A program made the position numbers and the translations under genes. Shown here piece by piece: positions 2 through 20,000 of a stretch of DNA of 20,000 bases (within the stretch, counting starts at the first letter, position 1; each line of letters starts with the position of its first letter). The stretch lies in the IMG/VR virus record IMGVR_UViG_3300042377_000720. One strand, 5' to 3'. The notes beneath the pieces were generated by a model, which worked only from the letters and a program-made list of their open reading frames with translations, did not search any database and was not told where the DNA came from. Source of the DNA: an uncultured virus (IMG/VR IMGVR_UViG_3300042377_000720) (Duplodnaviria; Heunggongvirae; Uroviricota; Caudoviricetes).

Positions 2-3000
2 GAGGTAAGAGGAGATGGTCAATACTATTGTAATGAACCGGTGGATTGTTTATTAGTTTCCGATTTATACATTGAGGTTATTGGACACAAATCAGGCGTT
101 CAAAATCCTAGTGGAGAATGGCCATTTTACATTTACGCAAACTGTGTGTCTGGTTATAACCAAAATGCGGACATATACATTGAGAGAGTACCGGGTGAAG
201 ACTGTGTCTTTAAATTAACTGGAATAACTCAAAATGAAATTATCGATTTTGACATTATTGACGGTGCAAATAAAGAAGTTAAATTTAGAATAGAAGGTTT
301 ACAGGCCAAAGTTGAACATGACCCATGTCCATTACCAAGTGGTAAAAGTCACGTTGAATTGTTCGAACTAATAGGTTTCCAAGGAACTTCAGGAAATAGT
401 ATATCATCCATATCAGGTGCCACATTCTGTGACAATTATACGGGACATACAATTCACCCTAAAGTTGAATATAGAAGTAATTTCAATTATGGTTTAAAAT
501 GTGATACGGATGTTTTAGTTGTCACAACGGGAATAACAATTAACAGCGGTACCACAAGTATTGATGTTGAAACTTTTATTTCAAACGGAGATATAATTAA
601 AAAAAGTGTTTGTGACCTTCTTGTTGATGATTACATTTTATCTGCTGAATACAAAGATTGTAACCAATTATCAAATCAACAATTCCAAGACGCACCTGAA
701 AATGGTTATTCGTTCACATATGAATATGTTAAATTAAAAGTTACCGATAAAGATTGTCTTGCTTCTGTTAAGAAGAGTGTCATTACGGGTTTAACCAATA
801 ATGGAATTTATGAAGTATTTGAAGTTTTACCAACAACCCAACTTAGAGTTTATACAAATAAGTTTATTGAGAATTTTGGAAATGTAACAAATGGTAACTA
901 TCACTTTGATGATAGATTTCCTGAAGAATTACAAAGTAAACCAATAGATTTCATTGAACCATGCTGTGACCACCCAAAAGAGTTATATAATCATGGAGAT
1001 TATTTAATTAATCAATATGGGTACCCAATCGAAGTGATTGCTGTCGATTTAAATTACTGTGAATCAAACCTATATTTTAATTTAAATGTTGAGAAGGACG
1101 GCACACCATTAGGTGATGATAGTTTCTTAGTAGTATTCAATGGTAACTCAAATGAACAATTACTAATGAAACACACATATAGTGTTCATCCGGGTCTTGA
1201 CTTTAAATTAGGTCAATATTATATTGACCCTGAACATTGTCCAACTGAACCAACAAATGAAGAATTAGAGATTTCGGTTTTTGGTGAGTGTATAGATTGT
1301 GATTTTGATATCGATGTGAACATATTAGATTGTAATTTTGATATCGATGTTGATGTTATATTTAACGAGACAACACCAACGCCAACATCAACTAGTACAC
1401 CTACTGTAACACCAACGGAAACTCCCACAGGAACGGTAACAAATACACCAACTAGTACGGTAACCCCAACTAGCACTGTAACACCAACAGCAACTCCGAC
1501 AGAGACACCAACTAGTACTCCTACTGCAACGGAAACGCCAACAATTACGCCGACAGTAACTCCTACAGGAACAGCAACACCTACTGCAACTCCTACTGAG
1601 ACACCAACCACAACTCCGACTGAAACGCCGACAGGAACCAGTACACCAACTATTACTGATACACCAACAATAACACCTACGGGAACTAGTACACCAACAG
1701 AGACTCCTACGGAAACGCCAACCGCAACTCCAACAGCAACTCCTACGGAAACGCCAACGGCAACTCCTACGGATACACCAACTACAACACCAACGGGAAC
1801 ATCAACTCCTACAGGCACTGCGACACCCACAGAAACGCCAACTAGTACTCCAACAGGAACCAGTACTCCTACAGAGACGCCAACTAGTACACCGACTAAT
1901 ACGGAAACGCCAACAATTACCCCAACAGGAACAGCAACTCCAACTAGTACTCCAACAGCAACTCCTACGGAAACGCCAACTAGTACTCCTACGGAAACAC
2001 CAACAGGAACTAATACTCCGACAGAGACATCAACAGCAACTCCTACGGAAACACCAACAGGAACGCCGACTATTACACCAACGGAAACGCCAACACAAAC
2101 GGCAACTCCGACTGAAACCCCTACTGAGACACCAACGGCAACGCCGACTAGTACGCCAACGGCAACTCCGACTGAAACACCAACTGAAACTCCTACGGAA
2201 ACGCCAACGGCAACTCCGACAGGAACCAGTACGCCGACTATTACTGATACACCAACTATTACACCTACAGGAACGGCAACTCCTACGGAAACACCAACAG
2301 TGACTCCTACGATTACACAGTCACCAACTGATACCCCAACTGTAACACCAACTACAACATGTACTTTGGTTACAACTCAATACTTGGAGGTAAAATTACT
2401 TGGATGTACTAATTTTAGTTTGAAATTATTTGATAATCCTAATTTAACGGGTAACGCAAATGCCATTTGTGATTATGTGGTATCAGGAACCGCATATGGG
2501 GATTTAGGTACGGTATATAATGGAACAGAAACAATCGCATACAACGACCATACACATTCGTTCAATTTGAATCCTGTTTTACAACAGGGAGAATGTGTTA
2601 GTAGTTTTACCGTTAATTCTGTCCAACCTGTATGTTCATGTGTTGAGGTAATTTATGTTCAAACAACACCAACACCAACTAGTACCGCAACACCTACAAT
2701 AACACCCACTGGAACTAGCACAGAGACGCCGACAGCAACTCCTACAGGAACTAATACTCCTACGGAAACACCTACGGGAACCGCAACTAATACACCTACT
2801 GAGACGCCGACAGTAACACCAACAGGAACCAATACTCCAACAGAGACACCAACGGCAACTCCAACAGGAACTAGTACACCAACTCCAACGGAAACGCCAA
2901 CAGCGACCCCAACTAATACGGAAACGCCAACATCAACTCCTACAGGAACGGCAACTCCTACCGGAACTAGTACTCCTACGGAAACACCAACAGCAACCCC

Positions 3001-5149
3001 AACAGGAACCATTACACCAACTAATACAGAAACACCAACTAGTACACCTACGGCAACTCCTACGGGAACTAGTACACCAACAGCAACTCCGACTGAAACT
3101 CCTACGGCAACTCCGACAGGAACTAGTACACCTACGGAAACGCCAACCGCGACACCGACAGGAACTAGTACACCTACTGCAACTCCTACGGAAACGCCAA
3201 CAGAGACACCAACGGAAACGCCAACAGCAACTCCTACAGGAACAGCAACTCCTACGGGAACAGCAACTCCTACTGAGACGCCAACAGCAACCCCTACGGG
3301 AACTGCAACTCCTACGGAAACACCAACTAGCACACCTACTGCAACTCCGACAGGAACAGCAACCCCAACAGGAACCATTACACCAACTAATACAGAAACG
3401 CCGACATCGACACCGACAGGAACTAGTACACCTACTGCAACTCCTACGGAAACACCAACTATAACCCCTACAGGAACTGCAACACCTACCGCAACTCCTA
3501 CGGAAACGCCAACCGCAACTCCTACGGGAACTGCAACTCCGACAGCAACTCCTACGGAAACACCAACTGCGACACCAACTATAACCCCAACACCTACGGA
3601 AACGCCGACAGCGACGCCAACTGCAACTCCTACGGAAACACCAACCGCAACTCCAACAGGAACAGCAACTCCAACAGGAACTGCAACACCAACAGAGACG
3701 CCAACAGCAACTCCAACAGAGACACCTACGGAAACGCCGACAGCGACGCCAACTGCAACTCCTACGGAAACACCAACCGCAACTCCAACAGGAACAGCAA
3801 CTCCAACAGGAACAGCAACTCCAACAGGAACAGCAACTCCAACAGGAACTGCAACACCAACAGAGACGCCAACAGCAACTCCAACAGGAACAGCAACTCC
3901 AACAGGAACAGCAACTCCAACAGGAACTGCAACACCAACAGAGACGCCAACAGCAACTCCAACAGAGACACCTACGGAAACGCCAACATCAACACCACCT
4001 ATTAATCTTATTCTTACATCATGTTGTGATGTAAGTCAATTTAAGTATGTAACGGTAGATGCTGGTGCATATGCAATAGATACTAATTTAACAACAAGTA
4101 TTTTTGGATGTTGTTACCATTTAACCGACATTGGTGGTAATGGTTCAGATGGATATTATCCTGGAACCACTTTATTTGATTTTACCACATGTGAAGATTG
4201 TTTGATTGAGAATCCGGGGTTATATGTGAATGTTAATTTAGACTCTTGTTGTCCTGAAAATCCTACAGTTAATAAACTTGATATTGGGGTGGGATGCTCA
4301 ACAGAATATACTTTACCAATCGTTGGTCAGATTATTAATTACTATGGATATTGTTACACAATAACAAGCGTAGGGTCAACAAATGAAGGATGTGCACCAA
4401 TATATCAATATTATAACACATGTTCAGATTGTGGACCATGCATAACACCTACACCGACAGTAACACCAACTAGTACGGCAACCCCTACAGGAACACCAAC
4501 ACCGACAGTAACACCAACCAGTACTGCAACACCAACTAGTACTGCAACCCCTACAGGAACACCAACTCCTACTGTAACACCAACAGCAACCCCTACAGCA
4601 ACCTTGGCGGTTGAATGTTACAACATAGGACCATCATATACGGGTGGTTGGATTTATTATATTAACTGTACAGGTGGAACGCAAGAACAGTATTTCAACC
4701 CGGGAGAAACGGGCACATTATGTATTGACGAATTACTTACTGACACTAATAACATTGCGGTACCAACAGGTGTACAGTGTTATGACTGCACCCCTTGTCC
4801 ACCATATAACCCGGCACCATTAATTTGTACGTGTCATGAAATAACAATTAGTCAAGAGGATATAGATAATGCGACAGGTAACAACAACCCTGTTACCATA
4901 AATGGGGCATACTACCCAAGTGCAAATGGAAAAGTATTCTTTAAATATTTTGAGTGCGGTTATGGTAATGAACCAAGGTTAACGATGTTTGGTGTTGCAG
5001 GAATATATAACATATGTATTTGGAGTGCAGATACTCGTTACTCACCTGCATTGGTTTACTTCCAAGGTGACGTTCAACTGACAGCTCCAACTTCTAGTTA
5101 TGTAAACAGTTTAGTACCATGTAATAAACCCGAGGATTGTGATAGATAA
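2..5149 (+). CDS. Very large modular protein, 5'-partial (>1715 aa): Cys-containing beta-rich N-terminal region, three mucin-like Thr/Pro tracts and several Cys-rich modules; putative virion structural/decoration protein
   Basis: The ORF track starts at GTG 41, but the frame is open back to the window edge ([13 protein letters not shown] at 2-40), so the gene starts upstream. TPT[A/E/G/S] tracts lie at about 1369-2358, 2660-4000 and 4442-4602. Stop TAA ends at 5149. Function is inferred from composition and context only. Confidence 0.8.
1369..2358 (+). repeat. Coding Thr-Pro low-complexity tandem repeat (12-nt TPTx and 18-nt TPTGTx units)
   Basis: About 330 codons of [17 protein letters not shown] units with varied third codon positions. 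Confidence 0.95.
2660..4000 (+). repeat. Coding Thr-Pro low-complexity tandem repeat, second and longest tract
   Basis: About 445 codons of TPTx/TPTGTA units. The distal part (3590-3980) has perfect nucleotide repeats such as GCAACTCCAACAGGAACA. Confidence 0.95.
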
Positions 5150-5161
5150 AATAAAGAATAA

Positions 5162-5172
5162 AAGTATTTATA
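5162..5172 (+). promoter_or_regulatory. Putative phage late promoter motif AAGTATTTATA
   Basis: Intergenic, 19 nt before ATG 5192. The same 11-mer recurs at 10352-10362, with variants at 7937 and 9413. Confidence 0.55.
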
Positions 5173-5191
5173 AAATAACAAGAAAAGACAT

Positions 5192-6217
5192 ATGTTTATA
5201 ACATTTACAATACCATCAGGATATACCGCAACAGATGCGGGACCATTTAATATTTCGGGATTAACCGATACGTTTGATGTTGTTCTTTTAGCAACAGGTA
5301 TCACAAAATCTCAATTATTAACGGGTTATACTGTTGACACCACACCATACACAATTGTAAGTGGAACAGTTGCTAGTGTTGGATTATGTACAAATGAAGT
5401 TAATTATGTTATTAGTTCTACCACACCAACACCTACTGTAACACCAACGGGAACTAGTACTCCTACAGTAACACCAACGGGAACTAGTACTCCTACGGGA
5501 ACACCAACGGAAACCATTACCCCCACACCAACAGGAACTAATACCCCAACTGAAACGCCGACAACAACACCTACTACGACACCAACAAGTACTAACACAC
5601 CAACAGTGGTAACACCAACAGAAACACCAATCCTATTTTGTTATGGTTATAACATCGAAGGTGCCGCATCTATTGATGTTGAATGGTTAGAGTGTGATGG
5701 AACACCAAATTCTGCAACAGTAACAAGTGCAATAGTTGTTTGTGCTCAAAATGGTTCAGTATTTCAAACCGGAGGTGAGGGTAACATAACACAACTAGGG
5801 GAATGTGAAACGATTACACCAATGGAAACTCCAACACCGACAGGTACTAATACACCAACATCAACACCAACGGGTACTAATACACCAACATCAACACCAA
5901 CAATAACTGTTACACCTACATTCACACCTGAACCAATAGGAACATCCGCATATGAGGCGGAAGAATGGTCATGTGAATACGATTCAGGAGGAGTAGCAAC
6001 AGGATGTACAATGATAAATGATAACGTAATTGTTGAGATGCCAACATCAACGTCTCCTGTATTTGGTAGATTCTACATTGAAAATGTTGGGGCGTGTACT
6101 GGAAGTATTTTTAAAATTACAGGTAACACTATAAGTGGTGGACCTAACTTAATACTTTACGGAACAACAGGTCATGGCGTGTGTACGAATGCATGTCAAG
6201 AAAATTGTCAATTATAA
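5192..6217 (+). CDS. Thr/Pro-linker, Cys-rich modular protein (341 aa), putative structural protein
   Basis: N-terminal ~75-aa beta domain (AGPFNISGLT...TGITKSQLLTGYT...SVGLCTN), TPT linker, Cys module, second linker, C-terminal Cys module. No signal peptide. Confidence 0.75.
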   Translation: MFITFTIPSGYTATDAGPFNISGLTDTFDVVLLATGITKSQLLTGYTVDTTPYTIVSGTVASVGLCTNEVNYVISSTTPTPTVTPTGTSTPTVTPTGTSTPTGTPTETITPTPTGTNTPTETPTTTPTTTPTSTNTPTVVTPTETPILFCYGYNIEGAASIDVEWLECDGTPNSATVTSAIVVCAQNGSVFQTGGEGNITQLGECETITPMETPTPTGTNTPTSTPTGTNTPTSTPTITVTPTFTPEPIGTSAYEAEEWSCEYDSGGVATGCTMINDNVIVEMPTSTSPVFGRFYIENVGACTGSIFKITGNTISGGPNLILYGTTGHGVCTNACQENCQL

Positions 6218-6221
6218 TTAA

Positions 6222-7913
6222 ATGGGACTAAACGTAAGAATATATAATATAATCTCAAATGGTAATTACACGATTCGTTATAAGTCGGGTAATAATCCAT
6301 ACCCCGTTGAAACTAATTCAACTTTTACGTTATTGGGTTCATATACTCCGTCAACAACTGAAATAACAATTTCAGGTTTAACATTCGATACTCAGTATTG
6401 GATTAAAATGACGGACAATGCAACGGGTAGATATATTGTTCAAAATATCTTTACTCACGATAGTAAGGCGTTCCCATGTTATGACACAATCTGTTTTAGT
6501 ATCGATGTGACATGTGAAAACCAATCAACACCTACACCAACGATAACTCCAACTCCAACCATAACGACAACCCCAACATCAACATCAACGGGAACTATAA
6601 CAACTACCCCGACATCAACTACTTGTAGTGACGATATTGTAAGAACATTGAACAGTCCATCAGTGTATAACAGACCTTCCGGTATGGTGTATAACCCAAA
6701 TAATAATGAAATTTATGCACTTAACGTTGGTGCGGCATATTACATTAGTAGAGTTATACCAAACTCATCAACACAATCCATATTTGGGACATTTACGACC
6801 AGTGTAAACACATCTATTATAGGTATGAATACCGTAACAAATAAAGTTTATGGGGTTGACGTAGGTGGCACTATACGTATGCAAAATACAACAATTCCAC
6901 AAACCGAAACATATTTAGGAAATGGACCAACAAATCCAAAGGCGTTTGAATTTAATTCGGGAGATAATGTAATGTATCTTTCCTCATATACTGGAACGAG
7001 TTCAGGTGAAATATCGGTAATAGATGGTTCTTCTGAAACATTTATTACACAAGTTACTGGTTTACCAATTAATAGTACGAGTTATACATTAAGTTATAAC
7101 TCAATTAACGATACTCTTTATCTTCCGGGTACGGGTACAACTGTTCAAAGATTTTCTACGATATCATATACAATAGTTGGGAGTATTGCGGTCAGTGGAA
7201 CGGTTCGTTCATTATCATATAAATCATCAACTAATCAATTATTTGTAATCCATACAGGGGGTTATGATGTAATCGATTGTTCAACAAATAGTGTTACAAA
7301 TTCATATAGTATTTCACTTGGGTTGACGATTTATAACTCTGTATATAACAGTGTAAACAATAAATTATACATCCCAATTTTTGATGGTGGAGTTGTTAAA
7401 GTTATTGATGTATCAACGGGTACACTATCAGATACAATAACAATACCGGATTCAACACCATTTGATGTGGTATTTTATCCACCAACAAACACAATTTATG
7501 TGTCCGACCCCAAAACAACAACATTTAAAATTGTTGAGATATGTGGTTCAATTGGAGCAACACCAACCCCAACGGTAACACCTACATCAACGACAACCCC
7601 AACAATAACTCCAACATCAACGGGAACTATAACAACAACCCCAACTTCAACACCAACAATAACTCCAACTTCAACACCTATGGAATTTTACTATTTTATT
7701 AGGGCAGTAAGTAACTGTGATACGGGCGCAGCGAGCGGCCCAACGTACATAGCGAAGTCCCTTGTTTCGTTATCAATAGGGACATTTGTAAATATGAGTA
7801 GTTTACCAAATCCTAATTGTGCTTGGAAAATAATAAGTGAAACCGTCGGTCCCGAGGACGACATAATAAGCGGAAGTTGTGGAACAAGTATACCTGTGGG
7901 TTGCTGTTGTTAA
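6222..7913 (+). CDS. FN3-like domain plus YncE/YVTN-like beta-propeller between Thr/Pro linkers (563 aa); putative adhesin/receptor-binding protein
   Basis: N-terminal YTIRYK...ITISGLTFDTQYWIKM matches the fibronectin type III pattern. About seven ~40-aa blades (PSGMVYNPNNNEIYAL, PKAFEFNSGDNVMYLS, ISVIDGSS, YNSVNNKLYIP...VKVIDVSTG, PFDVVFYPPTNTIYVS) lie at about 6630-7545. Starts 4 nt after the upstream stop. Confidence 0.75.
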   Translation: MGLNVRIYNIISNGNYTIRYKSGNNPYPVETNSTFTLLGSYTPSTTEITISGLTFDTQYWIKMTDNATGRYIVQNIFTHDSKAFPCYDTICFSIDVTCENQSTPTPTITPTPTITTTPTSTSTGTITTTPTSTTCSDDIVRTLNSPSVYNRPSGMVYNPNNNEIYALNVGAAYYISRVIPNSSTQSIFGTFTTSVNTSIIGMNTVTNKVYGVDVGGTIRMQNTTIPQTETYLGNGPTNPKAFEFNSGDNVMYLSSYTGTSSGEISVIDGSSETFITQVTGLPINSTSYTLSYNSINDTLYLPGTGTTVQRFSTISYTIVGSIAVSGTVRSLSYKSSTNQLFVIHTGGYDVIDCSTNSVTNSYSISLGLTIYNSVYNSVNNKLYIPIFDGGVVKVIDVSTGTLSDTITIPDSTPFDVVFYPPTNTIYVSDPKTTTFKIVEICGSIGATPTPTVTPTSTTTPTITPTSTGTITTTPTSTPTITPTSTPMEFYYFIRAVSNCDTGAASGPTYIAKSLVSLSIGTFVNMSSLPNPNCAWKIISETVGPEDDIISGSCGTSIPVGCCC

Positions 7914-7936
7914 AAAAATAATAAAAAATAGATTCA

Positions 7937-7944
7937 TATTTAAT
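7937..7944 (+). promoter_or_regulatory. Variant of putative late promoter motif (TATTTAAT)
   Basis: Intergenic, 4 nt upstream of ATG 7949, the same spacing as the 10355 copy. Confidence 0.35.
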
Positions 7945-7948
7945 ATAG

Positions 7949-9388
7949 ATGCCAACTTCAAGTTATGAAATAACAGTTTCCAATTTTAATGGTACAACAC
8001 CATGTGAAAGTTATTCAGTTTATACTGGAATAACTCACGACATTGATGACGCTGATTATGTGGAAGACGTTAACGTACCCGTTTCGGGATACACTTTAAG
8101 TTTGAATGTTGATAGTTCATATGATAATGTTTATTTATTTATTGAACATTGTGATGGACACATTAACTCGGTGCCAACGTCAACACCTAAATTACAAGGT
8201 GGTTATCAATTGGTTTTTGTTGATTTAAGATGTGACGATTGTATTTCACAAATAATCCCAACACCAACCCCCACGGGGACTAACACACCAACGGTAACAC
8301 CAACACCCACAACAACTAGTACTGATGTTACACCAACACCAACAATAACCCCAACTCCCACTGTGACCCCCACAGGAACTAGTACACCTACGGCAACCCC
8401 TACAGGAACTCCAACAGGAACCAGTACCATAACACCAACACCGGCAGAAGGATGTTATTGTTATGAATTCAATATTGATGAACGTGAATTTGGAGAATAC
8501 GGAGGGCCAATACTTCAATATTTAGATTGTAGTTTAACACCTCAAAGTATAGGATTTAGTGGTGTTGGGGGATTTTCAGGATATTGCATATCCTCAATAA
8601 CAGATTGGTATAGATATAATGGACCGGAAGAGTCTGATATCGTTCCGATTGAGTTTTCAACATATACTAATACATTAAACCCATGTACTATAGATGGTGA
8701 TTGTATTGTAACGGGTGAACCAACACCAACACCTACATTAACCCCTACGGCGACACCAACAATAACACCGACCCCTACTTTAACTCCAACAGGAACTAGT
8801 ACACCTACTTTAACTCCTACAGGAACTAATACACCTACAGCAACTCCTACGGGAACTAGTACTCCAACGGCGACGACAACGGAACAATCAACACCTACAC
8901 CTACAGAATCAAGACCATGTAATTGTTACACTGTTGAATGTTCGAATCCGGAAGGATGTTCGGTAACATATGAAGATTGTAACGGTGTGTTATTTGTAGA
9001 CTCAATTTCGGGCTCAACAACCATAAATCTTTGTGGTAATATAGTCAATTTAGACCAACCTAATTTAATAATTACAAATACAGGAAACGCATGTGTATTT
9101 GACGGTGAAATATACTCGTGTTTAACTGAGTGTCAATGCGCGAACATTTACATCGATGAAAGAGATTTAATTGCATCAGATGACGGTATTGTTTATGTTA
9201 GTATGATTAAATGTGACGGAACGGAAATTATAACCCAATACAATTCTCCTGCAACATATGTTGCGTGTGTACAAGTAATTAATAGTATTTACATTTTAAA
9301 ATTAGGAATCCAAAGTGCTCCGTCGTATAGTACTGCAACGATAATACCTGGTAGTAACTGTACAGTGGATAATGATTGTATGAGTTAA
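7949..9388 (+). CDS. Thr/Pro-linker protein with three CxC-initiated Cys-rich modules (479 aa), putative structural protein
   Basis: Modules begin CYCYEFNIDER (8453), CNCYTVEC (8918) and CQCANIYIDER (9131). Two TPT linkers. No signal peptide. Confidence 0.75.
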   Translation: MPTSSYEITVSNFNGTTPCESYSVYTGITHDIDDADYVEDVNVPVSGYTLSLNVDSSYDNVYLFIEHCDGHINSVPTSTPKLQGGYQLVFVDLRCDDCISQIIPTPTPTGTNTPTVTPTPTTTSTDVTPTPTITPTPTVTPTGTSTPTATPTGTPTGTSTITPTPAEGCYCYEFNIDEREFGEYGGPILQYLDCSLTPQSIGFSGVGGFSGYCISSITDWYRYNGPEESDIVPIEFSTYTNTLNPCTIDGDCIVTGEPTPTPTLTPTATPTITPTPTLTPTGTSTPTLTPTGTNTPTATPTGTSTPTATTTEQSTPTPTESRPCNCYTVECSNPEGCSVTYEDCNGVLFVDSISGSTTINLCGNIVNLDQPNLIITNTGNACVFDGEIYSCLTECQCANIYIDERDLIASDDGIVYVSMIKCDGTEIITQYNSPATYVACVQVINSIYILKLGIQSAPSYSTATIIPGSNCTVDNDCMS

Positions 9389-9410
9389 TACCATTTAAAA
9401 TTTACTTTCT

Positions 9411-9420
9411 AATATTTATC
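9411..9420 (+). promoter_or_regulatory. Variant of putative late promoter motif (AATATTTATC)
   Basis: Intergenic, 18 nt upstream of ATG 9439. Confidence 0.4.
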
Positions 9421-9438
9421 TGATATATTAGATACTAA

Positions 9439-10338
9439 ATGGCATGTACTCCAGATACAGTAACCCCAAAAGGTGTTACAATTAATTTAAATTCGGGTTC
9501 AGATTACACAAATTGTACTGTTTATACGGGTCTAACGGACTCTACGGTTACGGGGACAACTAATTGTGTAAATATAACTGGGACAACATGTACCTTAACA
9601 GGTTTGTCTGCAACATTAATGGAAGTTTTTGTTAAAATTGACTGTGAAGGGTGTTGTTCAAATACATTTAGAGTTAATTTAGATGAATGTTGTGGAGATA
9701 TAGTATCGACACCAACGCCCACCCCAACAGTAACTCCTACGGGAACTAGTACTCCTACGGTAACATCCACCTCGACACCAACATCTTCCGTATGTGAATG
9801 TAACACGTATAGAATTACATATATTTCTTATTGTGGAGAATTTATAAATTGGACTGATTGTAACACAAACACACCGATGTCCGAACGGGGTGATTATTTT
9901 GGATTACCTACCCCCCAATTCACTATGGGAACGGTGTTAGATTTATGTTCTTGCTCTTTACCAACAACAGATTGTACTTTAGTAACAATAAGTTTAGTTA
10001 CTACTGGATGTACACTTGAAGGTGGATTTATTACAACCACCTCAACTATAACCCCAACCCCAACACCAACATCATCTAATATACAATTTACAGTTCAAAC
10101 AGGTGATACTCTATGTAATGGTGGGACCTGCCAATTAAATGGTAATATTGGTAACTCAACAATTTACATGGGTTTAAGTGATTCGTTTGTTGATTCAACA
10201 ATCGTTTTCTCGGATGCGGGACTGACAACATATTTCCCAGATACCAACGCAATTAATCCCGGCGCTTCATATCCGAATTTATATTATGTACTTAGTGGGG
10301 TGTTATATATAGATTGTTTAAAAGGTAGTGGATGTTAA
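9439..10338 (+). CDS. Cys-rich modular protein with short Thr/Pro linkers (299 aa), putative structural protein
   Basis: The N-terminal domain with VYTGLT resembles VYTGIT in the 7949 gene. Central CECNTYRI...INWTDC module. C-terminal module ends in Cys. Confidence 0.75.
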   Translation: MACTPDTVTPKGVTINLNSGSDYTNCTVYTGLTDSTVTGTTNCVNITGTTCTLTGLSATLMEVFVKIDCEGCCSNTFRVNLDECCGDIVSTPTPTPTVTPTGTSTPTVTSTSTPTSSVCECNTYRITYISYCGEFINWTDCNTNTPMSERGDYFGLPTPQFTMGTVLDLCSCSLPTTDCTLVTISLVTTGCTLEGGFITTTSTITPTPTPTSSNIQFTVQTGDTLCNGGTCQLNGNIGNSTIYMGLSDSFVDSTIVFSDAGLTTYFPDTNAINPGASYPNLYYVLSGVLYIDCLKGSGC

Positions 10339-10351
10339 TAAAATTAATTAA

Positions 10352-10362
10352 AAGTATTTATA
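10352..10362 (+). promoter_or_regulatory. Putative phage late promoter motif AAGTATTTATA
   Basis: Identical to 5162-5172; ends 4 nt before ATG 10367. Confidence 0.55.
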
Positions 10363-10366
10363 TCAT

Positions 10367-12532
10367 ATGAGTTTTCTAAGTAAAAATAATTCGGAGTTCC
10401 TATCAGCAAGAATAACCCAAAAGGGAAGAAATTCTATTGCCAAAGGAAATTTTGTAATATCATATTTCCAAATTGGGGATTCTGAGTTTGATTACACAAA
10501 TCCATTCACAGGATTAACGGGTTTAGGTGGTGTTCAACACCAATCAGTATTCTCACCATTTGATAAAGAAGGTGGGGTAAAATACCCATATAAAATAGAT
10601 TCATCTGATACCTCAACAACGTATGGTATTCCTATTGATATGTCAGTAACTGACATTTTAAGAAATGTAATGGGACCTGCGGGATTCGTTAGTAATTACG
10701 AAGAATATGATAGTGTTGCATGTACAGGAACAACAATCCAATGTACAACACAATCAATCCCATTATCGGGAATTACAGGAACAACAAGTATAATTGTACC
10801 AACAGGTTCAAGTTTTAGTGACTGTGAATATATTACGGTGGTTTTCAATCAGTTCGGAGGTACCGACCCTAACTATCCTGTTATCACAGGACAAGCGTCA
10901 AGTTTAATTTATCAAGTAATCAGTGTAAGTGGAAACACAATCACGGTGGATAGAAATTTACCTAACTTCTCAGGATGTTCGGGTAATGTTCAGGTTATTT
11001 GTAATTCGTGTGAAAATGAATATCCTATAGATGCGGGAATTAGTCCGTATTGTAGTCCAAATGATATCGACCCATCACAACAATTAAATTCGTGGACAAT
11101 GAATATTGTATGGGATAAAAAACCAACCGGATTTGATGTTAATGGTTTAGATGAAAATCTAACTGGTTTCACAAGTAACAAACACGTATCAACAAAACAA
11201 TTTTTAGGTTATACCACAACAAGTGGTCAAACATGGGTAAACAGTACAGGTGGAACAATTACGGGTGTTACATCTTATTACAATTCATTTGACGAGAAAA
11301 TTATTGTTTCTCCCGAAGAACAAAGAACAATTGCGATTATTCATTATTCAGAATTGGGAGATTTAGTTAATGACCCTGAAAGATTTTATAAGTACGATGA
11401 TTACATCTCAACAAATAATGTTGAAGGTGATGCGTTATTGGAAGATGCCGATGAGAACACAATTACCGATTTAGAATATTTTGAGGTTTATATTCCGTTT
11501 GTTCAATATCACAGAAATACTGGAACCACAGTTGGTGCGTTATTTACAATGGATACTACCGATTACTATATGAAATCAAGTATTAACCCAACTCAATTAT
11601 TATTGTTCAGATATTTGTTAGATGAACAAGGTTATAAAGTTGGTAAGATTTACGTTAACAACAAAACAATTGTTTTTGACGACCAAGAACTTATTGCGGT
11701 ACTTGACTATAAATCAAATAGAAAATACACATTACCAGCACCTAAAATTAGTTTAATTCCGAGTGACACATCTACAGGAGAATCATTCTTCACAGGTTCA
11801 ACAACAGGACAAACTATTTGGGTAACATACATGTTCAATTACACAGGTGACACACAATTAAATGGATTACCATGTAATTATTATTCTAAAATTGAAGTAT
11901 TTGATGGTGACGAATGTTTAAAAAACCCATCTCAATTATTTGTTAAATTTGGAGAAGATAGTTTCCCATTCATGAATAACACAAACGTGTGTTCAGGAGC
12001 GTCATCAGGATTCATCGCAAACCAATTCCAAATTTTGGTACAAGTTACTGATACAGGTGAACTACCGATTCATGATAACTGGACAAGAATCAATTACACA
12101 TCACACATTTCGGGACATACGGTTGGACAATTAATTGACCCATTAGATATCACTAATGTTTCAATGAAAGTTACAAACGCAATGTATACAAGTGGTACAT
12201 TATATGATATTGAAAGTTATTTAGGTTTAGTTCCCAATGAATCTGATTCATTAACCGAACCTGGATTACCACAATTTGGTGATGAACAACCATTTCCGGG
12301 AAGTATTAGATTGGTTAGAGCAACTGACATAGAAAGAATGACATTTATGGTAAACTTACCATCATCTCAGTTCACAACAACACAAAATCCTACTTACCCA
12401 TCAGGTGCGGATAAAAGAATTACTGAAGTTGCCTTATTGAACAGTAATAAGGAAGTTATGGTGATTGCTAAAACCGCAAAACCAATTAAAAGAATTGGCA
12501 CACAAGTGTTTGGAGTAAGATTAGACTTCTAA
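10367..12532 (+). CDS. Putative virion structural protein (721 aa), baseplate/tail-collar-fibre-like termini
   Basis: N-terminal ARITQKGRNSIAKGNFVISYFQIGDSEFDY and C-terminal ITEVALLNSNKEVMVIAKTAKPIKR resemble the two conserved halves of phage tail-collar fibre (DUF3751-like) domains. Recognised by eye only. Confidence 0.55.
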   Translation: MSFLSKNNSEFLSARITQKGRNSIAKGNFVISYFQIGDSEFDYTNPFTGLTGLGGVQHQSVFSPFDKEGGVKYPYKIDSSDTSTTYGIPIDMSVTDILRNVMGPAGFVSNYEEYDSVACTGTTIQCTTQSIPLSGITGTTSIIVPTGSSFSDCEYITVVFNQFGGTDPNYPVITGQASSLIYQVISVSGNTITVDRNLPNFSGCSGNVQVICNSCENEYPIDAGISPYCSPNDIDPSQQLNSWTMNIVWDKKPTGFDVNGLDENLTGFTSNKHVSTKQFLGYTTTSGQTWVNSTGGTITGVTSYYNSFDEKIIVSPEEQRTIAIIHYSELGDLVNDPERFYKYDDYISTNNVEGDALLEDADENTITDLEYFEVYIPFVQYHRNTGTTVGALFTMDTTDYYMKSSINPTQLLLFRYLLDEQGYKVGKIYVNNKTIVFDDQELIAVLDYKSNRKYTLPAPKISLIPSDTSTGESFFTGSTTGQTIWVTYMFNYTGDTQLNGLPCNYYSKIEVFDGDECLKNPSQLFVKFGEDSFPFMNNTNVCSGASSGFIANQFQILVQVTDTGELPIHDNWTRINYTSHISGHTVGQLIDPLDITNVSMKVTNAMYTSGTLYDIESYLGLVPNESDSLTEPGLPQFGDEQPFPGSIRLVRATDIERMTFMVNLPSSQFTTTQNPTYPSGADKRITEVALLNSNKEVMVIAKTAKPIKRIGTQVFGVRLDF

Positions 12533-12571: not shown

Positions 12572-13171
12572 ATGAGTATAAAACTAAAGAATGCACCCAA
12601 AATTTTGGGTTTAGACATTTCAACTAAGACCATCGGATGGGCGCTATTTGATATCGGTTCTTCTAAATTATTAGAACTGACACATTTTTCACCAAAAATT
12701 AAACCTCAACCCGAAGATAAAATTGAAGAACTTTTATTGAAGGCCGATGCGTTTAAAAAACAATTGGAGAACTACAGAGATGTTGGTATTACCAAGGTGG
12801 TGATTGAAGAGCCACTATTACAATCAAATAACATTTACACAGTTGGTACCCTTTTAAGGTATAACACATTGATTCTCAAGTCGTGTTATGATGTTCTTGG
12901 AGTACTCCCAACATTTATTTCAACTTACAACGCAAGGAAATTTGCATTTCCTGATTTGGTAAGTATGAACGATAAAGGTAGGAAAGTTTTATTTGGTGGT
13001 TTACCAAAAGACATTGATAAAAAACACGTTATATGGGAACACGTTAATGCGGTGTGTCCTGAGGTTGAGTGGTTATATGGTAAAACGGGACAACTCAGAA
13101 AAGAGAATTACGATATGAGTGACGCAGCAACTGCCGTTATCGGTCATGTTAATATGCAAAAAAGTTTATAA
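12572..13171 (+). CDS. ruvC: RuvC-like Holliday junction resolvase (RNase H fold)
   Basis: ILGLDISTKTIGWA (catalytic D), VVIEEP (catalytic E) and C-terminal DMSDA (two D) form the RuvC catalytic arrangement; 199 aa. Confidence 0.8.
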   Translation: MSIKLKNAPKILGLDISTKTIGWALFDIGSSKLLELTHFSPKIKPQPEDKIEELLLKADAFKKQLENYRDVGITKVVIEEPLLQSNNIYTVGTLLRYNTLILKSCYDVLGVLPTFISTYNARKFAFPDLVSMNDKGRKVLFGGLPKDIDKKHVIWEHVNAVCPEVEWLYGKTGQLRKENYDMSDAATAVIGHVNMQKSL

Positions 13172-13213
13172 TTAATTTTTTTTTATAAATCTTTTTACTT
13201 ATATTCTACAATA

Positions 13214-13282
13214 GTACTGAACCTATAGAAATATAGGTGTTAGTTACGGGTGGGGGTTTTGGTGTAACCTCCGCCCTTTTTT
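13214..13282 (+). ncRNA. Candidate small structured RNA (GAAA-capped hairpin plus terminator hairpin)
   Basis: ACCTATA-GAAA-TATAGGT (13221-13238) extends with bulges to 13214-13247 and abuts a second GC-rich hairpin with a U-tract. TATATTCT at 13200 could be a -7 element. Confidence 0.4.
13248..13282 (+). terminator. Rho-independent terminator
   Basis: GGGTGGGGGTT / AACCTCCGCCC 11-bp stem (two G-U pairs), 7-nt loop, followed by TTTTTT. Confidence 0.8.
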
Positions 13283-13289
13283 ATGCTCA

Positions 13290-13321
13290 TTTGGAAAATC
13301 CATTTTTTTTATTTATATTAT
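13290..13321 (+). promoter_or_regulatory. Putative Bacteroidetes-type -33/-7 promoter
   Basis: TTTG (13290-13293), 20-nt spacer with a T-tract, TATATTAT (13314-13321). Implies that the primase starts downstream of 13320. Confidence 0.5.
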
Positions 13322-13325
13322 GGGT

Positions 13326-14267
13326 ATGGCAACCCTTATTATGGAATACGAACCGATTATAGACATTCTTGAAGACATCTTAGGGGGACATCACATGCAC
13401 AACGACTACAAGGGTCAAATGTCATTTGATTGTCCTGTTTGTTCACATGATATCAAAGGTTTAGATGATGGTGATGGTAAGGGAAATTTGGAAGTAAATT
13501 ATCGTCGAGGTGTTTATAAATGTTGGTCTTGTGCAGAAACACATAACACATATGGTTCACTTTATAAGTTGATAAAAAAACACGGTAACGCAAAACATCT
13601 TAAAAATTATGAACTATTAAGACCTGAAGAAGATGAGGATGGAAATAAGAGAGTTTATAATAAAGTTCAATTACCAAAAGAATATAACTCGTTTGACAAG
13701 GCAAGTGCGGGATTAAAACTAACTCCACAATATAGACAAGCGTGGAATTATATTAAAAAAAGAAACATTACCGACCAAATGATTACCCGATATAACATTG
13801 GGTTTTGTTATGAAGGTCCATATGCATTTAGAATTATCATTCCATCATATGATGAATATTTCAAATTAAATTATTTTATTGCCAGGTCGTATCTGACAAA
13901 ACCTTATATGAAATATAAGAACCCCGAGGTTCAAAAAGAAATCATTATATGGAACGAATATAACATCAAATGGGAAGACCCCGTTTATATTGTCGAGGGC
14001 GCGTTCGATAGTATATTCTTACCCAACTCAGTACCAATGTTAGGTAAGTTCATGTCGGAACATTTATTTAATAAAATCTATGACAACGCAACTAAGGTGG
14101 TTATTGTGTTGGATGGAGACGCATGGAATGATGCTGAATTGTTATTCCACAAATTGAATTGTGGTAAGTTGATGGGTAAGGTATGGATAATTAAACTTCC
14201 AATAGAACAAGATATTGCCGACTTACAGGGTAAATTAGGTGATTACAAAGAATTTAAATTAGAATGA
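13326..14267 (+). CDS. DNA primase (zinc-binding domain plus TOPRIM), phage DnaG-type
   Basis: CPVC...CWSC zinc ligands, RIIIP, KYKNP, TOPRIM IVEGAFD and LDGDA. The start is uncertain (13320, 13326 or 13341); 13320 overlaps the putative -7 element. Confidence 0.88.
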   Translation: MATLIMEYEPIIDILEDILGGHHMHNDYKGQMSFDCPVCSHDIKGLDDGDGKGNLEVNYRRGVYKCWSCAETHNTYGSLYKLIKKHGNAKHLKNYELLRPEEDEDGNKRVYNKVQLPKEYNSFDKASAGLKLTPQYRQAWNYIKKRNITDQMITRYNIGFCYEGPYAFRIIIPSYDEYFKLNYFIARSYLTKPYMKYKNPEVQKEIIIWNEYNIKWEDPVYIVEGAFDSIFLPNSVPMLGKFMSEHLFNKIYDNATKVVIVLDGDAWNDAELLFHKLNCGKLMGKVWIIKLPIEQDIADLQGKLGDYKEFKLE

Positions 14268-15127
14268 TAGACTTAAAACAGATTGCTCAGGAGATGAGAG
14301 ATGCTCTTGAGATTAGAAGACAGGAAATGGAACTCACATTCATTGAAGAGGACCACATTTATTATATGAAGGATACCGATGGTGTTATTAAAAGTAACTT
14401 TCCTTCAGTTTCTAAAGTAATAAAGAATTTTTATGTACCATTTGACGCTGAAACAAAATCACTTCAAATGGCCAAAGGTGATTTAAATAAACAAAGGGAA
14501 TTACTGGAGCAATGGAAGGCATCGGGAGATTACTCAACCAATATGGGTAGTCGTGTTCACTATTTGTTAGAAACCGAAACCATCACAAGGTATGGAGACT
14601 ATAAACAAGTTAGAGAACCAATCTTTAATTGTGATAACAGTCAAATTATTAAGAGTGATTCGATGATTGGTGCTGGTAATAAGTTCTTAGATTTAATGAC
14701 CGAGAGAAATGCGGTATTATTAGACACGGAACTTGTACTTGGTGACCCTGAATTAGGTTACACAGGTCAACCAGATAAAGTGTGGTTGATGATGAACAAA
14801 ACACAAGATGGTTTTGGTATCGTTGTTACGGATTGGAAAACAAATCAACCAAAGAACTTTAAAATCCAACCTTACACAGGTAAGATGATACATCCGTTTG
14901 AAAATTATTACGATACGGCATTAACACATTATTTTATTCAATTACCATTATACGGTAAGTTGTTAATTAAAATGTTACAGGGTACTAAATTTGACCTAAC
15001 AAAATTATTGGGTTGTGTTGTTGTTTTATTAAAAGACGATGGTACATTTGAAGAGTTTAAGGTACCATTTGAAGTTACCCAATCAATATTACAAATGAAT
15101 GTTAAACAATACATGAAAAAGAAATGA
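14264..15127 (+). CDS. PD-(D/E)XK family exonuclease (RecB/Cas4-like phage nuclease)
   Basis: PSVS, GSRVH, E..L...GQPD, DWKT and QLPLY motifs. ATGA overlap with the primase. No four-Cys Fe-S ligand set is visible. Confidence 0.82.
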   Translation: MIDLKQIAQEMRDALEIRRQEMELTFIEEDHIYYMKDTDGVIKSNFPSVSKVIKNFYVPFDAETKSLQMAKGDLNKQRELLEQWKASGDYSTNMGSRVHYLLETETITRYGDYKQVREPIFNCDNSQIIKSDSMIGAGNKFLDLMTERNAVLLDTELVLGDPELGYTGQPDKVWLMMNKTQDGFGIVVTDWKTNQPKNFKIQPYTGKMIHPFENYYDTALTHYFIQLPLYGKLLIKMLQGTKFDLTKLLGCVVVLLKDDGTFEEFKVPFEVTQSILQMNVKQYMKKK

Positions 15128-15927
15128 TAAAAAAGATTATACATATTGCAGATTTGCACATTCGTACATATCAATACCATGAGATGTACAAGAGACAATT
15201 TGATTTACTATTGGAAGATTTAAAGGAACAAGTTTTGGATTATGACTATTCTGAAATTAGAGTTGTAATTGCTGGAGACATTGCACATCAAAAGATTAAT
15301 ATTTCAAACGAACAAATGATGTTAACCTCTTGGTTAATTAAAGAACTTGCCGATATTATTGGTAAAGTTATTATCATTCCGGGTAACCATGACTTCTTGG
15401 AGAACAACGTACAGCGTTTAGATAGTATCACACCTGTGGTTGAGTTATTAAACCACGAGGATATTAAATACTATAAAAATAGTGGAGTATATGAAGATGA
15501 CAACATCAATTGGGTTGTTTATTCATTATATGAACACAATCAAAAACCTGAGTACACAAAAGAAGAAGGTTTCTACGTTGGTTTATTTCACGGACCAATT
15601 CAAGGTCTGTCAACCGACTTAGGATTTGAATTTGAAAGTGCGTACTCACCATTAAACTTTGTTGATTTAGATTTACTTCTATGTGGTGATATTCATAAGA
15701 GACAAATGTTTGATTTACCCGGTGGAGGTAAGGCAATAATGATTGGTTCATTAATCCAACAGAACTTCGGTGAGACCGTAAACTACCACGGATATGGTAT
15801 TTATGATGTACCAACAAACGAATACACAACACGCGATTTAAAAAACGAACAACCATTCCTGCACTTCTCAATATCAGATATTGCAGACATAGAAAATGAA
15901 GAAGAAAATCTCCTTAACGTTAGATAA
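15124..15927 (+). CDS. sbcD: SbcD/Mre11/gp47-like metallophosphoesterase nuclease subunit (short, 267 aa)
   Basis: Phosphoesterase motifs HIADLH, AGDIAH, PGNHD, FHG, GDIH and GSLIQQNFGE. ATGA overlap. SbcC lies 1.5 kb downstream. Confidence 0.85.
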   Translation: MIKKIIHIADLHIRTYQYHEMYKRQFDLLLEDLKEQVLDYDYSEIRVVIAGDIAHQKINISNEQMMLTSWLIKELADIIGKVIIIPGNHDFLENNVQRLDSITPVVELLNHEDIKYYKNSGVYEDDNINWVVYSLYEHNQKPEYTKEEGFYVGLFHGPIQGLSTDLGFEFESAYSPLNFVDLDLLLCGDIHKRQMFDLPGGGKAIMIGSLIQQNFGETVNYHGYGIYDVPTNEYTTRDLKNEQPFLHFSISDIADIENEEENLLNVR

Positions 15928-16507
15928 CGACTTTCAACAATATTGTGATTTAAACAACATTGAAAACCCTGAGAAACTTGCCAAACAAGTATTCAATAAG
16001 GGGTTTTCGTTGTTGAAGTATGGTGAGACACCTAACGGGTTTAAATCAGAACCCACGGTTGTTGAAAAGGAGGTAATCAAAGAAGTTATTAAAGAGGTTG
16101 AGGTAGAGAAGATTGTTGAGAAGATAGTTAAAGTTCCTGTTGAAGTTATTAAGGAAGTAATCAAAGAGGTACCAGTTGAGGTCATTAGGGAAGTAATTAA
16201 AGAGGTAACCGTTGAAGTGGTTAGAGAAGTACCTATCGAAATAAAAGGTGACACTCAAGTCATTACAAAAGAAATAATCAAAGAAGTTAAGGTAGAGGTA
16301 CCTGTTGAGGTTATTAAGGAAGTTAAGGTTGAAAAAATTGTTGAGGTTATAAAAGAAGTAATCAACACAGAAGAAATTGACAAATTAACCCAAGAGAATC
16401 TTAAACTAACAAACGAATTGAATTCACTTAAAAGTTCCCTCGACAATATTGGTAAGAAGGGTACATTAATGCGTGGTAGTAATATGTCATCATTATATGA
16501 CGAATAA
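15896..16507 (+). CDS. Hypothetical protein with V/I-K-E-V(P) repeats and C-terminal coiled coil (203 aa)
   Basis: VEKEVIKEVIKEVEVEKIVEKIVKVPVEVIKEV... at about 16057-16365, then a heptad-like IDKLTQENLKLTNELNSLKSSL. Overlaps the sbcD end by 32 nt. Confidence 0.75.
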   Translation: MKKKISLTLDNDFQQYCDLNNIENPEKLAKQVFNKGFSLLKYGETPNGFKSEPTVVEKEVIKEVIKEVEVEKIVEKIVKVPVEVIKEVIKEVPVEVIREVIKEVTVEVVREVPIEIKGDTQVITKEIIKEVKVEVPVEVIKEVKVEKIVEVIKEVINTEEIDKLTQENLKLTNELNSLKSSLDNIGKKGTLMRGSNMSSLYDE

Positions 16508-16539
16508 TTTGGTTTAGTCAAATTTTTTTCGTATTATTT
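16508..16539 (+). promoter_or_regulatory. Putative Bacteroidetes-type -33/-7 promoter
   Basis: TTTG (16508-16511), 20-nt spacer with a T-tract, TATTATTT (16532-16539), followed by A-rich AAAAAAACTT-ATG. Confidence 0.5.
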
Positions 16540-16553
16540 TAATAAAAAAACTT

Positions 16554-16862
16554 ATGGCAACATTATTTTTATGGTCTTTTATGGCATATGGAATGACAAC
16601 AATACTTGTCTATGGTTCCATCTTTGAAAAATCAAGAGAGTGGATTAAACGAAATTCAAAATTCTTTGGAGATTTAATTTCATGCATGTTATGTACATCG
16701 ACGTGGGTCGGTTTCTTCATGTCAATAACCCTTGGTGGATTAACTACATCATTGGATATCCATTGGATACCATCAATTTTTTTCGATGGTATGTTTACTG
16801 CGGGTATTGTTTGGGCGATTAACGGAATCGTTGAGTTCTTCGAGGAGAGCAGAATAAAATAA
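16554..16862 (+). CDS. Small membrane protein, DUF1360-like, with CxxC
   Basis: Three hydrophobic segments. IFEKSREW...LISCMLCTSTWVG matches the L..CxxC.S.W pattern of DUF1360 proteins. Confidence 0.65.
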   Translation: MATLFLWSFMAYGMTTILVYGSIFEKSREWIKRNSKFFGDLISCMLCTSTWVGFFMSITLGGLTTSLDIHWIPSIFFDGMFTAGIVWAINGIVEFFEESRIK

Positions 16863-16896
16863 ACCACCATTGAGTGGATGCATTAGATTATGATTA

Positions 16897-17424
16897 ATGG
16901 CATTTATAAGAAGAAATTTTGATGACACTCTTGTTAGAGAATTTGGAATTAAATTTACAAAAGAACAGTTTGGTTTACTATTTGAAAACCACCCAAACAA
17001 AATTGCGATAGACCTAATCAACCCTGAAGATTACAATAAAGGAGTTGAGATGGAAGGAGGAGGATGGGAAGGTGATTTTTGGTTAAATGAGAAATATGTG
17101 AAGATTAGTAAATTAGATTTTGGTACAATTAATATCCCAATCAGGAAAACAAAATATTGGTATGATAAAATAAATGAAGTTTTACTTCCGAATAGGAAAA
17201 AAAATCTGTTTATTCGCACCAATAAAGACTTCACCCAAGCGATTGTAATTAAACCAACAACAATTAAGAACAGAAACAAAATACTGTGGACCGAGTTCCA
17301 ACCAAACAATAGTACTGAAGTTGAGAAGTGGATGTCATTCAGACAAGAACACGTAGACACATACGACTTGGTTGGTGGTAAATGGAAAAAACAACGAATT
17401 AAAAAGAAAAATGGCATACAATAA
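16897..17424 (+). CDS. Hypothetical basic protein, possible PD-(D/E)XK-fold endonuclease (175 aa)
   Basis: IDL...GVEME acidic arrangement, W.G.FW and INIPIRKTKYW; Lys-rich. The nuclease call is tentative. Confidence 0.5.
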   Translation: MAFIRRNFDDTLVREFGIKFTKEQFGLLFENHPNKIAIDLINPEDYNKGVEMEGGGWEGDFWLNEKYVKISKLDFGTINIPIRKTKYWYDKINEVLLPNRKKNLFIRTNKDFTQAIVIKPTTIKNRNKILWTEFQPNNSTEVEKWMSFRQEHVDTYDLVGGKWKKQRIKKKNGIQ

Positions 17425-19753: not shown

Positions 19754-19777
19754 AACCAAAAATTTTTCTTATTTTTA
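19746..19777 (+). promoter_or_regulatory. Putative Bacteroidetes-type -33/-7 promoter
   Basis: TTTC (19746-19749), 20-nt spacer with a T-tract, TATTTTTA (19770-19777), before AAAAACAAATT-ATG. Confidence 0.35.
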
Positions 19778-19790
19778 TAAAAAACAAATT

Positions 19791-20000
19791 ATGAACACAA
19801 ACGATTATAAAGACTTTGGATTATATGCCAAAGACAAAGGTATCAGTAGTCTAAGTCTACACAATTTCAATAAACAAATTGAATCAAGTCTAACACCTTA
19901 TATCCTTGAGGAAAGACAAATGAACATCACCGTAATGGATGTGTTCTCTCGTTTAATGATGGAACGTATCATATGGGTTGCCGGTGAGGTAAACGACCAC
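19791..20000 (+). CDS. clpP: ATP-dependent Clp protease proteolytic subunit, 3'-partial
   Basis: Not in the ORF track. My translation is MNTNDYKDFGLYAKDKGISSLSLHNFNKQIESSLTPYILEERQMNITVMDVFSRLMMERIIWVAGEVNDH; TPYI.EER...MDVFSRLMM.RII is the ClpP N-terminal motif in its Bacteroidetes form. Confidence 0.9.
   Translation, partial: MNTNDYKDFGLYAKDKGISSLSLHNFNKQIESSLTPYILEERQMNITVMDVFSRLMMERIIWVAGEVNDH

Follow-up and report, generated by a model that had tools for sequence, protein, structure and literature searches.

A Ser/Thr-Gly-x-Thr motif in outer virion proteins of a probable Bacteroidota jumbo phage as a candidate sequon for phage-directed O-glycosylation

The baseplate cluster and its phage

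The DNA considered here (the window) is a 20,000-nucleotide stretch of the uncultured virus IMGVR_UViG_3300042377_000720, corresponding to the minus strand of G000:C1:178900-198899 in a single virus record of 310,691 bp (~311 kb). It covers the baseplate region of a T4-like jumbo phage, where most of the proteins encoded at positions 2-12532 are enriched in a short word, Ser/Thr-Gly-x-Thr (hereafter [ST]GxT), which probably marks positions at which the phage glycosylates its own virion. We called 361 open reading frames (ORFs) in the genome, and a Pfam scan of the 250 with at least 120 amino acids (aa) returned a T4-type Gp23 capsid protein, portal, prohead protease, terminase, sheath, tube, gp25 and a baseplate-J-like wedge protein. 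The same scan returned a protein with a Por-secretion C-terminal domain, which indicates a Bacteroidota host, and Bacteroidota is probably the host phylum. By capsid protein, the closest cultured phage is Flavobacterium phage immuto, with 40% identity over 58% of the query major capsid protein.

Positions 2-12532 hold the final six genes of a cluster that follows gp25 and the wedge gene (Table 1). None of the six ORFs received a family assignment from Pfam, PHROG or Atlas, though their position in the cluster and a TATTTAT element upstream of three of them suggest that all encode virion proteins. For the 721-aa protein, Pfam and PHROG returned no family and the Atlas neighbours were all viral and unnamed; its likeness to immuto comes down to a 37-residue match to gp107 (E 9e-6), and membership in a tail-collar family, considered as a candidate, found no Pfam support. 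The 2703-aa protein has N-terminal homologs in the related records G013, G016, G020 and G023. One protein of the replication/repair block is probably SbcC-like, judging from its residues.

Table 1 Features of the window, with [ST]GxT counts as observed vs expected (in brackets, shuffles reaching the observed count)
Feature	Coordinates	Strand	[ST]GxT copies	Remarks
2703-aa baseplate-region protein, 3' part	2..5149	+	7 vs 0.92 in the in-window non-repeat part (0/2000), at 218, 413, 440, 527, 545, 785, 4670; 16 vs 1.8 at full length	Starts ~2.96 kb upstream of the window; Thr-Pro (TP) linkers, Cys-rich modules
TATTTAT, candidate late-promoter element	5165..5171	+		21 nt upstream of ORF 5192; putative promoter function
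341-aa protein (ORF 5192)	5192..6217	+	6 vs 0.73 (0/2000), at 5216, 5255, 5294, 5321, 5999, 6119	Small domains on TP linkers
563-aa protein (ORF 6222)	6222..7913	+	3 vs 1.25 (247/2000), not enriched	TP linkers
479-aa protein (ORF 7949)	7949..9388	+	3 vs 0.40 (8/2000), weakly enriched, at 8024, 8084, 9008	TP linkers
TATTTAT	9413..9419	+		Upstream of ORF 9439
299-aa Cys-rich protein (ORF 9439)	9439..10338	+	5 vs 0.93 (3/2000), at 9526, 9550, 9577, 10003, 10099	TP linkers
TATTTAT	10355..10361	+		Upstream of the 721-aa gene
721-aa virus-only protein	10367..12532	+	14 vs 1.26 (0/2000), from 10508 to 12110; 18 counting Ser-ending forms	Last gene of the baseplate cluster
Replication/repair block	12572..20000	+	None	RuvC-like resolvase, primase-like protein, phosphoesterase, start of ClpP
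TATTTAT	13310-13316			Close upstream of the motif-free primase-like gene

Definition and distribution of the motif

A sequence-only reading of the window had proposed a broader word, [ST]-G-x-[ST], as a motif that saturates the structural proteins. In the 721-aa ORF exactly the 18 copies it listed are present, and its estimate of about two by chance holds (2.26 +/- 1.44 in shuffles, 3.09 in local 30-residue shuffles, with 18 reached by 0/1000). The word itself had to be narrowed, since only Thr-ending forms are enriched (SGxT 57 vs 9.0 expected, TGxT 77 vs 11.8) and Ser-ending forms are not (SGxS 9 vs 7.8, TGxS 12 vs 9.1). Expected values here and below are mostly composition products after masking of TP-rich and S/G/T-rich windows, and some counts used shuffles. 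Among 11,979 three-class patterns, [ST]GxT ranked first (z 19.1) in a set of 20 proteins; because these proteins had been chosen in part on motif counts, we repeated the count on sets defined by position, which gave 78 vs 10.9 across the full run of 13 ORFs that begins with gp25 and ends with the 721-aa gene, and 26 vs 6.0 in all 11 ORFs called around the sheath gene. Overall, outer tail and capsid proteins carry the motif about six times above chance, with 4 vs 0.5 copies in the capsid protein and 11 vs 1.6 in the sheath. Saturation of the structural proteins is too broad a description: portal, tube, gp25, gp6-like, tape-measure-like and neck proteins contain zero copies (each with fewer than one expected), and 13 LamG proteins are at background (13 vs 11.6).

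With [ST]GxT, five of the six window ORFs pass the shuffle test and ORF 6222 fails. The broader word had been assigned to the N-terminal domains of four of these ORFs, an assignment that stands for ORF 5192 (6 vs 1.1) and ORF 9439 (6 vs 1.4), is marginal for ORF 7949 (3 vs 0.8; 46/1000 shuffles) and falls away for ORF 6222 (4 vs 2.6; 266/1000). The eight copies listed for the first ORF are all there, but what was taken for its N-terminus is not one, as the protein begins upstream of the window. Nor is the motif built into the linkers, whose words (TGTA 21, TGTS 19, TGTN 8 and others) include no [ST]GxT. Positions 12572-20000 do lack copies, yet the supposed contrast with replication genes does not follow: only 1.8 copies are expected in the nine whole ORFs (P(0)=0.16), so their absence is uninformative, and the ClpP ORF has one copy past the window end. 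Across 55 non-structural proteins, the original [ST]G.[ST] pattern occurs 14 times vs 16.8 expected. The TATTTAT element, to which motif-bearing genes were suspected to be confined, is associated with them instead, preceding 8/16 motif-rich ORFs vs 66/361 ORFs genome-wide (Fisher p=0.003); the element also precedes the portal, tube and primase genes, whose products lack the motif.

The first position of the motif accepts Ser or Thr and not Ala, Cys, Asp or Asn. A hydrophobic residue is mildly favoured before it, and Pro is rare at x (1/253 copies pooled from relatives). In this genome [ST]-A-x-T is not enriched (47 vs 46), and neither are the host-type motif D-[ST]-[AILVMT] (61 vs 63.4) and the N-glycosylation sequon N[^P][ST] (186 vs 191.8).

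Relatives show where the copies accumulate. For the 721-aa family we examined 11 of 25 loci, having dropped near-duplicates; each of the 11 ORFs has 10-20 copies where 0.7-1.8 are expected, and in the three remotest homologs further copies lie within insertions peculiar to those proteins. When 98 sheaths are aligned, their 428 copies occupy 137 columns, 101 of which are common to at most two rows, and conservation around the sites is low (0.16 vs 0.34 for all Gly). An AlphaFold model built from this alignment (mean predicted local distance difference test score, pLDDT, 88.3) matches T4 gp18 and minimal sheaths over ~280 residues. Across the 98 sheaths, the observed-to-expected ratio (O/E) is 5.06 at residues 104-330 and 2.94 at 501-660, which are insertion regions, vs 0.46, 1.16 and 1.02 in the conserved N-terminal, middle and C-terminal parts. 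Insertion domains of T4-type sheaths point away from the tube. The sequence-only reading expected surface loops; the sites sit in variable insertion domains, where they occupy coil, strand and helix ends (a two-residue hairpin for 14/428 copies). These data give good support to protein-level selection of the motif in those portions of the capsid, sheath and peripheral baseplate that vary and project outward. The motif is thus genuine, under selection and clade-wide, although its definition is narrower than first described.

The word varies among lineages. Sheaths from 150 representatives and the query fall into three states: rich in [ST]GxT, without it, or, in a separate clade, rich in [ST]-G-S. 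Among 229 sheaths of at least 650 aa, 11 have no copy of [ST]GxT and 10 have one, and in a 210-kb contig with a motif-less sheath (L575) the locus is at chance (2 vs 2.0). Immuto belongs to the [ST]-G-S group, with 7 vs 1.3 copies of that word in its sheath and 63 vs 15.7 in its baseplate-bearing 50 kb; this dialect marks structural proteins of immuto (NC_055915; L123, L124, L127) and of its clade (G029-G031). In some gut-type lineages [ST]-A-x-T is enriched (32 vs 8 in the G024 baseplate region). The present genome also encodes the GT4-GT4-GT2 cluster of the [ST]-G-S clade (L006:9584-13087), near a 4057-aa fibre (L007:3356-15526) with 24 [ST]GS vs 13.0 expected, and may hold both the [ST]GxT and the [ST]GS systems.

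A candidate glycosyltransferase and its co-loss with the motif

The genome encodes GT2, GT4, GT7, GT60 and GT47-like genes, at least 14 glycosyltransferase-like genes in all, as well as a UDP-galactopyranose mutase, a UDP-glucose dehydrogenase-like protein, methyltransferases and a carbamoyltransferase. Our candidate for the enzyme that reads the motif is a 405-aa GT4-like gene at G000:C1:260150-261364, ~61 kb upstream of the window. Its matches are phrog_7162 (glycosyltransferase; E 9.6e-42) and viral RfaG/Glycos_transf_1 (GT4-like) Atlas clusters; it has no direct Pfam hit and no PDB sequence match, but PF00534 or PF13692 is found on 3 of 120 listed homologs. A single-sequence fold model (pLDDT 33.6) is too weak to show a GT-B fold. 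Of 8,000 candidates scored for membership of the family, 7,770 had E<=1e-10.

We searched 40 related records, 12 of them near-complete, with four candidate genes. The candidate enzyme is in 10 of the 12 near-complete records; G013 and G020 are the two without it, and the match in G023 is weak. Whole-record motif O/E is 2.58, 2.55, 2.08 and 1.99 in records with the enzyme (G000, G016, G022 and the partial G010) and 1.04, 1.18 and 1.10 in records without it (G013, G020 and the partial G014), with G023, whose copy is degenerate, at 1.48. In G016 the ratio is 2.04 without a 34-copy repeat protein, a fibre-like protein of 1145 aa (G016:C1:203464-206898) in which [ST]GxT lies in solenoid-like repeats alternating with NGS and TGS words. 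Absence of the enzyme was checked by blastp, tblastn and two hidden Markov models, and the flanking genes are present. This genome has 50 genes in common with G016 and G022; the only two that G013, G020 and G014 lack are the enzyme and a 141-aa ORF of weak conservation. Over the 39 kb after the wedge gene, 13 records with the enzyme range from 1.46 to 6.40 in O/E and four without it from 1.16 to 1.55 (rank test p 8e-4; G023 left out). The G023 copy keeps 33/73 near-invariant residues, compared to 70-73 in 12 homologs sampled from 120; having lost the other 40, it remains an open 369-aa frame (G023:C1:183643-184749; L489) and may have changed function instead of decaying.

Several observations weigh against tying the motif to this enzyme. 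All four records without the enzyme (G012, G013, G014 and G020) belong to a single clade, so the rank test overstates the evidence, and the link to a glycosyltransferase that the sequence-only reading had envisaged, though supported by co-loss with one GT4-like gene, amounts to one clade-level loss and one decay. (That this clade is sister to G015/G016, with a Shimodaira-Hasegawa-like approximate likelihood ratio support of 100 in a quick tree, argues against habitat as the cause.) Two weak counter-cases are G028, judged on sheath and baseplate regions, which keeps a divergent copy at a baseplate-region O/E of 1.46 (p 0.14), and G050, a 58-kb fragment without the baseplate cluster, which has the enzyme at O/E 1.08. 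The baseplate region of G023 is still at 2.09, that of G016 gives 1.98 for a control pattern vs 2.11 for the motif, and immuto reaches 1.69 without the enzyme. Forty-seven further fragments yielded the family as 14 strong matches and one weak paralog, and no informative loss. In six of them we found the core GT4-like gene and not the enzyme; low identity to the query, rather than tree placement, suggests that they belong to the G027/G028 group, where the two genes lie ~90 kb apart.

Other glycosyltransferases fit the motif less well. The second-cluster GT4 (L006:9584-10939) is present in 4 of the 40 records (this phage and the [ST]GS clade) and in 0/12 near-complete ones, whereas the core GT2 and GT4-like genes beside the late sigma factor are kept in 12/12, motif-less records included. 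The GT60+GT7 fusion has no BLAST hit in G016, G013, G020 or G023, and the GT7 pair and the second GT4 cluster have none in the motif-positive G016.

The GT60 (PF11397)+GT7 fusion, at L001:13054-15450, could modify the very long Thr-Pro linkers (TPTAT, TPTET, TPTGT) found at window positions 1330-4000, 5425-5625, 8255-8900 and elsewhere, which resemble mucin-type and cellulase linkers. About eleven tandem LamG (PF13385) genes (L009:104-6953, L008:12285-19512) adjoin a glycan-biosynthesis cluster in which both GT7 enzymes are fused to LamG domains. Several unrelated ORFs (L002, L001; six ORFs by a strict pattern) open with a similar leader, K-I-I-x-T/S-E-x-Q/D-L, which we take to be like a capsid-targeting or prohead-protease signal. 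Across the genome GATC is essentially absent (O/E 0.0) and CTAG, CGCG, AGCT and CCWGG are avoided, and there are relatives without CCGG or GATC. Other genes include a TnpB/Cas12f-like gene (L004:2666-4090), an Acb1-like anti-CBASS gene below the Pfam cutoff (L006:2809-3345) and SmpB (L001:562-987).

Proposed mechanism, alternatives and relation to known systems

We propose, with a probability of about 0.6, that [ST]-G-x-T is the sequon of a phage-encoded, soluble GT4-like glycosyltransferase that O-glycosylates virion proteins in the cytoplasm. The enzyme would be made late in infection and, acting in the host cytoplasm, would use a nucleotide-sugar donor to glycosylate the first Ser/Thr at its hydroxyl, with the Gly at +1 giving access and the Thr at +3 serving as the recognition residue. 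Its targets would be outward-facing loops of capsid, sheath and peripheral baseplate proteins. Variable GT2, GT7, GT60 and GT47-like enzymes, together with methyl- and carbamoyltransferases, would then extend and decorate the glycan, and the outcome would be a dense, fast-changing coat that most likely shields the particle against proteases, off-target adsorption or particle recognition. The first Ser/Thr is the likelier acceptor because Ser and Thr are interchangeable there, the Thr at +3 does not vary, [ST]-G is common to both dialects, and the chlorovirus site N-T-x-T has equal spacing. Put more generally, at what we would call even odds, T4-like jumbo phages of Bacteroidota, a large and widespread clade, may have their own cytoplasmic O-glycosylation, with an enzyme family that reads [ST]-G-x-T or [ST]-[GA]-x-T, a different GT4 and the dialect [ST]-G-S in the immuto sister clade, and enzyme and sequon gained, changed and lost together.

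The motif might also arise without any modifying enzyme. An artefact of DNA repeats or codon context, to which a skew in codon use at the first position could point, can practically be dismissed: 134 copies lie in frame vs 0 and 6 in the other frames, and TCN, AGY and ACN codons are all used for the motif Ser/Thr, so that frame specificity and disjoint codon families rule out a DNA-level origin, while the skew itself reflects how CTGG/CCAG is avoided across the genome (O/E 0.45) and is largely common to non-motif S-G/T-G pairs (Thr p=0.68, Ser p=0.019). A plain structural preference, with Gly turns favoured where surface domains are rich in beta structure and a Ser/Thr-rich composition raising the count, would account for the weak x-G-x-T background that we do see ([DN]G.T 1.2-1.9 in whole records, ~1.7 in fibre proteins, and 1.69 for [ST]GxT in immuto as noted), because of which O/E under ~1.7 means little, and for the repeat protein of G016. 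It is nevertheless largely refuted already, and we consider it very improbable. The T4 structural region shows no enrichment (10 vs 10.7), four signal-peptide proteins of this genome have 3 vs 4.9, and its LamG proteins are equally unremarkable; in the motif-rich set [DN]G.T (16 vs 15.6), [ST]G.V (15 vs 13.9), AG.T and CG.T are not enriched. Two-residue hairpins are scarce among the sheath copies, homologous folds in the enzyme-less clade lack the motif, and G016 stays above 2 without its repeat protein. The claim of the sequence-only reading that the motif is selected across unrelated outer virion folds, beyond a beta-turn preference, is upheld by these controls.

Two further explanations accept a selected motif. 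In one, which we consider unlikely, the motif serves as a short linear signal that directs a non-glycosyl modification or the docking of a decorating protein, and the GT4 acts on, say, DNA or the host surface. Turnover and surface location suit any short linear motif, the genome has methyltransferases, a carbamoyltransferase and many LamG lectin-like genes, and phage GT-B enzymes are described as DNA modifiers in the accessible text of PMC12619734. Yet no other candidate gene has the same phyletic pattern, a hydroxyl at the first position (Ser or Thr) suits an O-linked acceptor, and the 250 scanned ORFs gave no hit to a TET/JBP or hydroxymethylase family; palindrome avoidance is strong with and without the enzyme (mean O/E 0.63-0.72 vs 0.58-0.61), and there is therefore little sign of DNA shielding. 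We likewise regard it as unlikely that the motif is a glycosylation sequon started by some other enzyme (the core GT2/GT4-like pair, a BLAST-divergent gene or a host enzyme), with the GT4 adding a later sugar or lost for other reasons. The number of glycosyltransferase-like genes, the single independent full loss sampled and the misfit of G028 and G050 with co-loss leave room for such an enzyme, but the phyletic patterns of the rejected genes speak against it: both core enzymes persist in motif-less records, BLAST against G016 returns neither the fusion nor the GT7 pair nor the second GT4 cluster, and the second-cluster GT4 is in none of the 12 near-complete records.

Glycosylation by the candidate GT4, as proposed above, would resemble virus-directed particle glycosylation described elsewhere. 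Mycobacteriophage virions reportedly bear glycans on the C-termini of capsid and tail-tube subunits (Freeman et al. 2023, cited in the accessible text of PMC12619734 and PMC12582341). Both cases involve glycosyltransferases encoded by the phage and a glycan shield proposed for its structural proteins; the C-terminal site is not shared, as copies here are internal, with up to 16 per protein on sheath, capsid and baseplate and 0 in the tube. The proposed system would work like virus-directed particle glycosylation while departing from the mycobacteriophage type in its sites. The chlorovirus PBCV-1 capsid is N-glycosylated at N-T-x-T according to the part of PMC9614988 available to us, likewise a virus-directed process at an atypical four-residue site with Thr at +3; that virus infects eukaryotes and uses an Asn acceptor at few fixed sites on one protein, unlike the many sites led by Ser/Thr-Gly that turn over across many proteins here. 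Bacteroidota themselves, likely the phylum of the host, O-glycosylate proteins at D-[ST]-hydrophobic, again by a sequence motif, in a periplasmic process dependent on an oligosaccharyltransferase (OTase); in B. fragilis, a Gly after the acceptor abolished glycosylation (both from the accessible text of PMC12871550). The host-type motif, as noted, is not enriched here.

Moraphages are aquatic Bacteroidota jumbo phages of 200-307 kb with four core glycosyltransferase groups and a glutamine synthetase, to judge from the accessible text of PMC12619734, and by that description they resemble this phage. The same text names no substrate for the core enzymes and no motif, and treats virion glycosylation merely as a possibility. 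Immuto (vB_FspM_immuto_2-6A, NC_055915) is a cultured relative that likewise has a glycosyltransferase cluster and motif-rich structural proteins; it differs in its enriched word, [ST]-G-S, in being without the three core enzymes and in using a different GT4, one that is also in this genome. We found no description of [ST]GxT or of a phage O-glycosylation sequon in the full-text literature searched, which covered few subscription papers and included PMC12386605.

What is new here is a single named candidate enzyme for the motif, and the co-loss of the two. The accessible text of PMC12871550 describes bacterial O-glycosylation as motif-less except for the periplasmic Bacteroidota system, and calls D-[ST]-hydrophobic the only known motif directing it; if our proposal is true, the phage system would join it as the second O-glycosylation code of the bacterial world to be directed by a motif, and its soluble enzyme and short, portable four-residue tag could serve protein glycoengineering. 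Since one enzyme and one peptide are named, a single in vitro assay can test the finding, and the related [ST]-G-S dialect is testable on a cultured phage. For the phages themselves, the proposal would mean that an abundant jumbo group has heavily glycosylated particles, and it would supply a substrate for one of their unexplained core glycosyltransferases.

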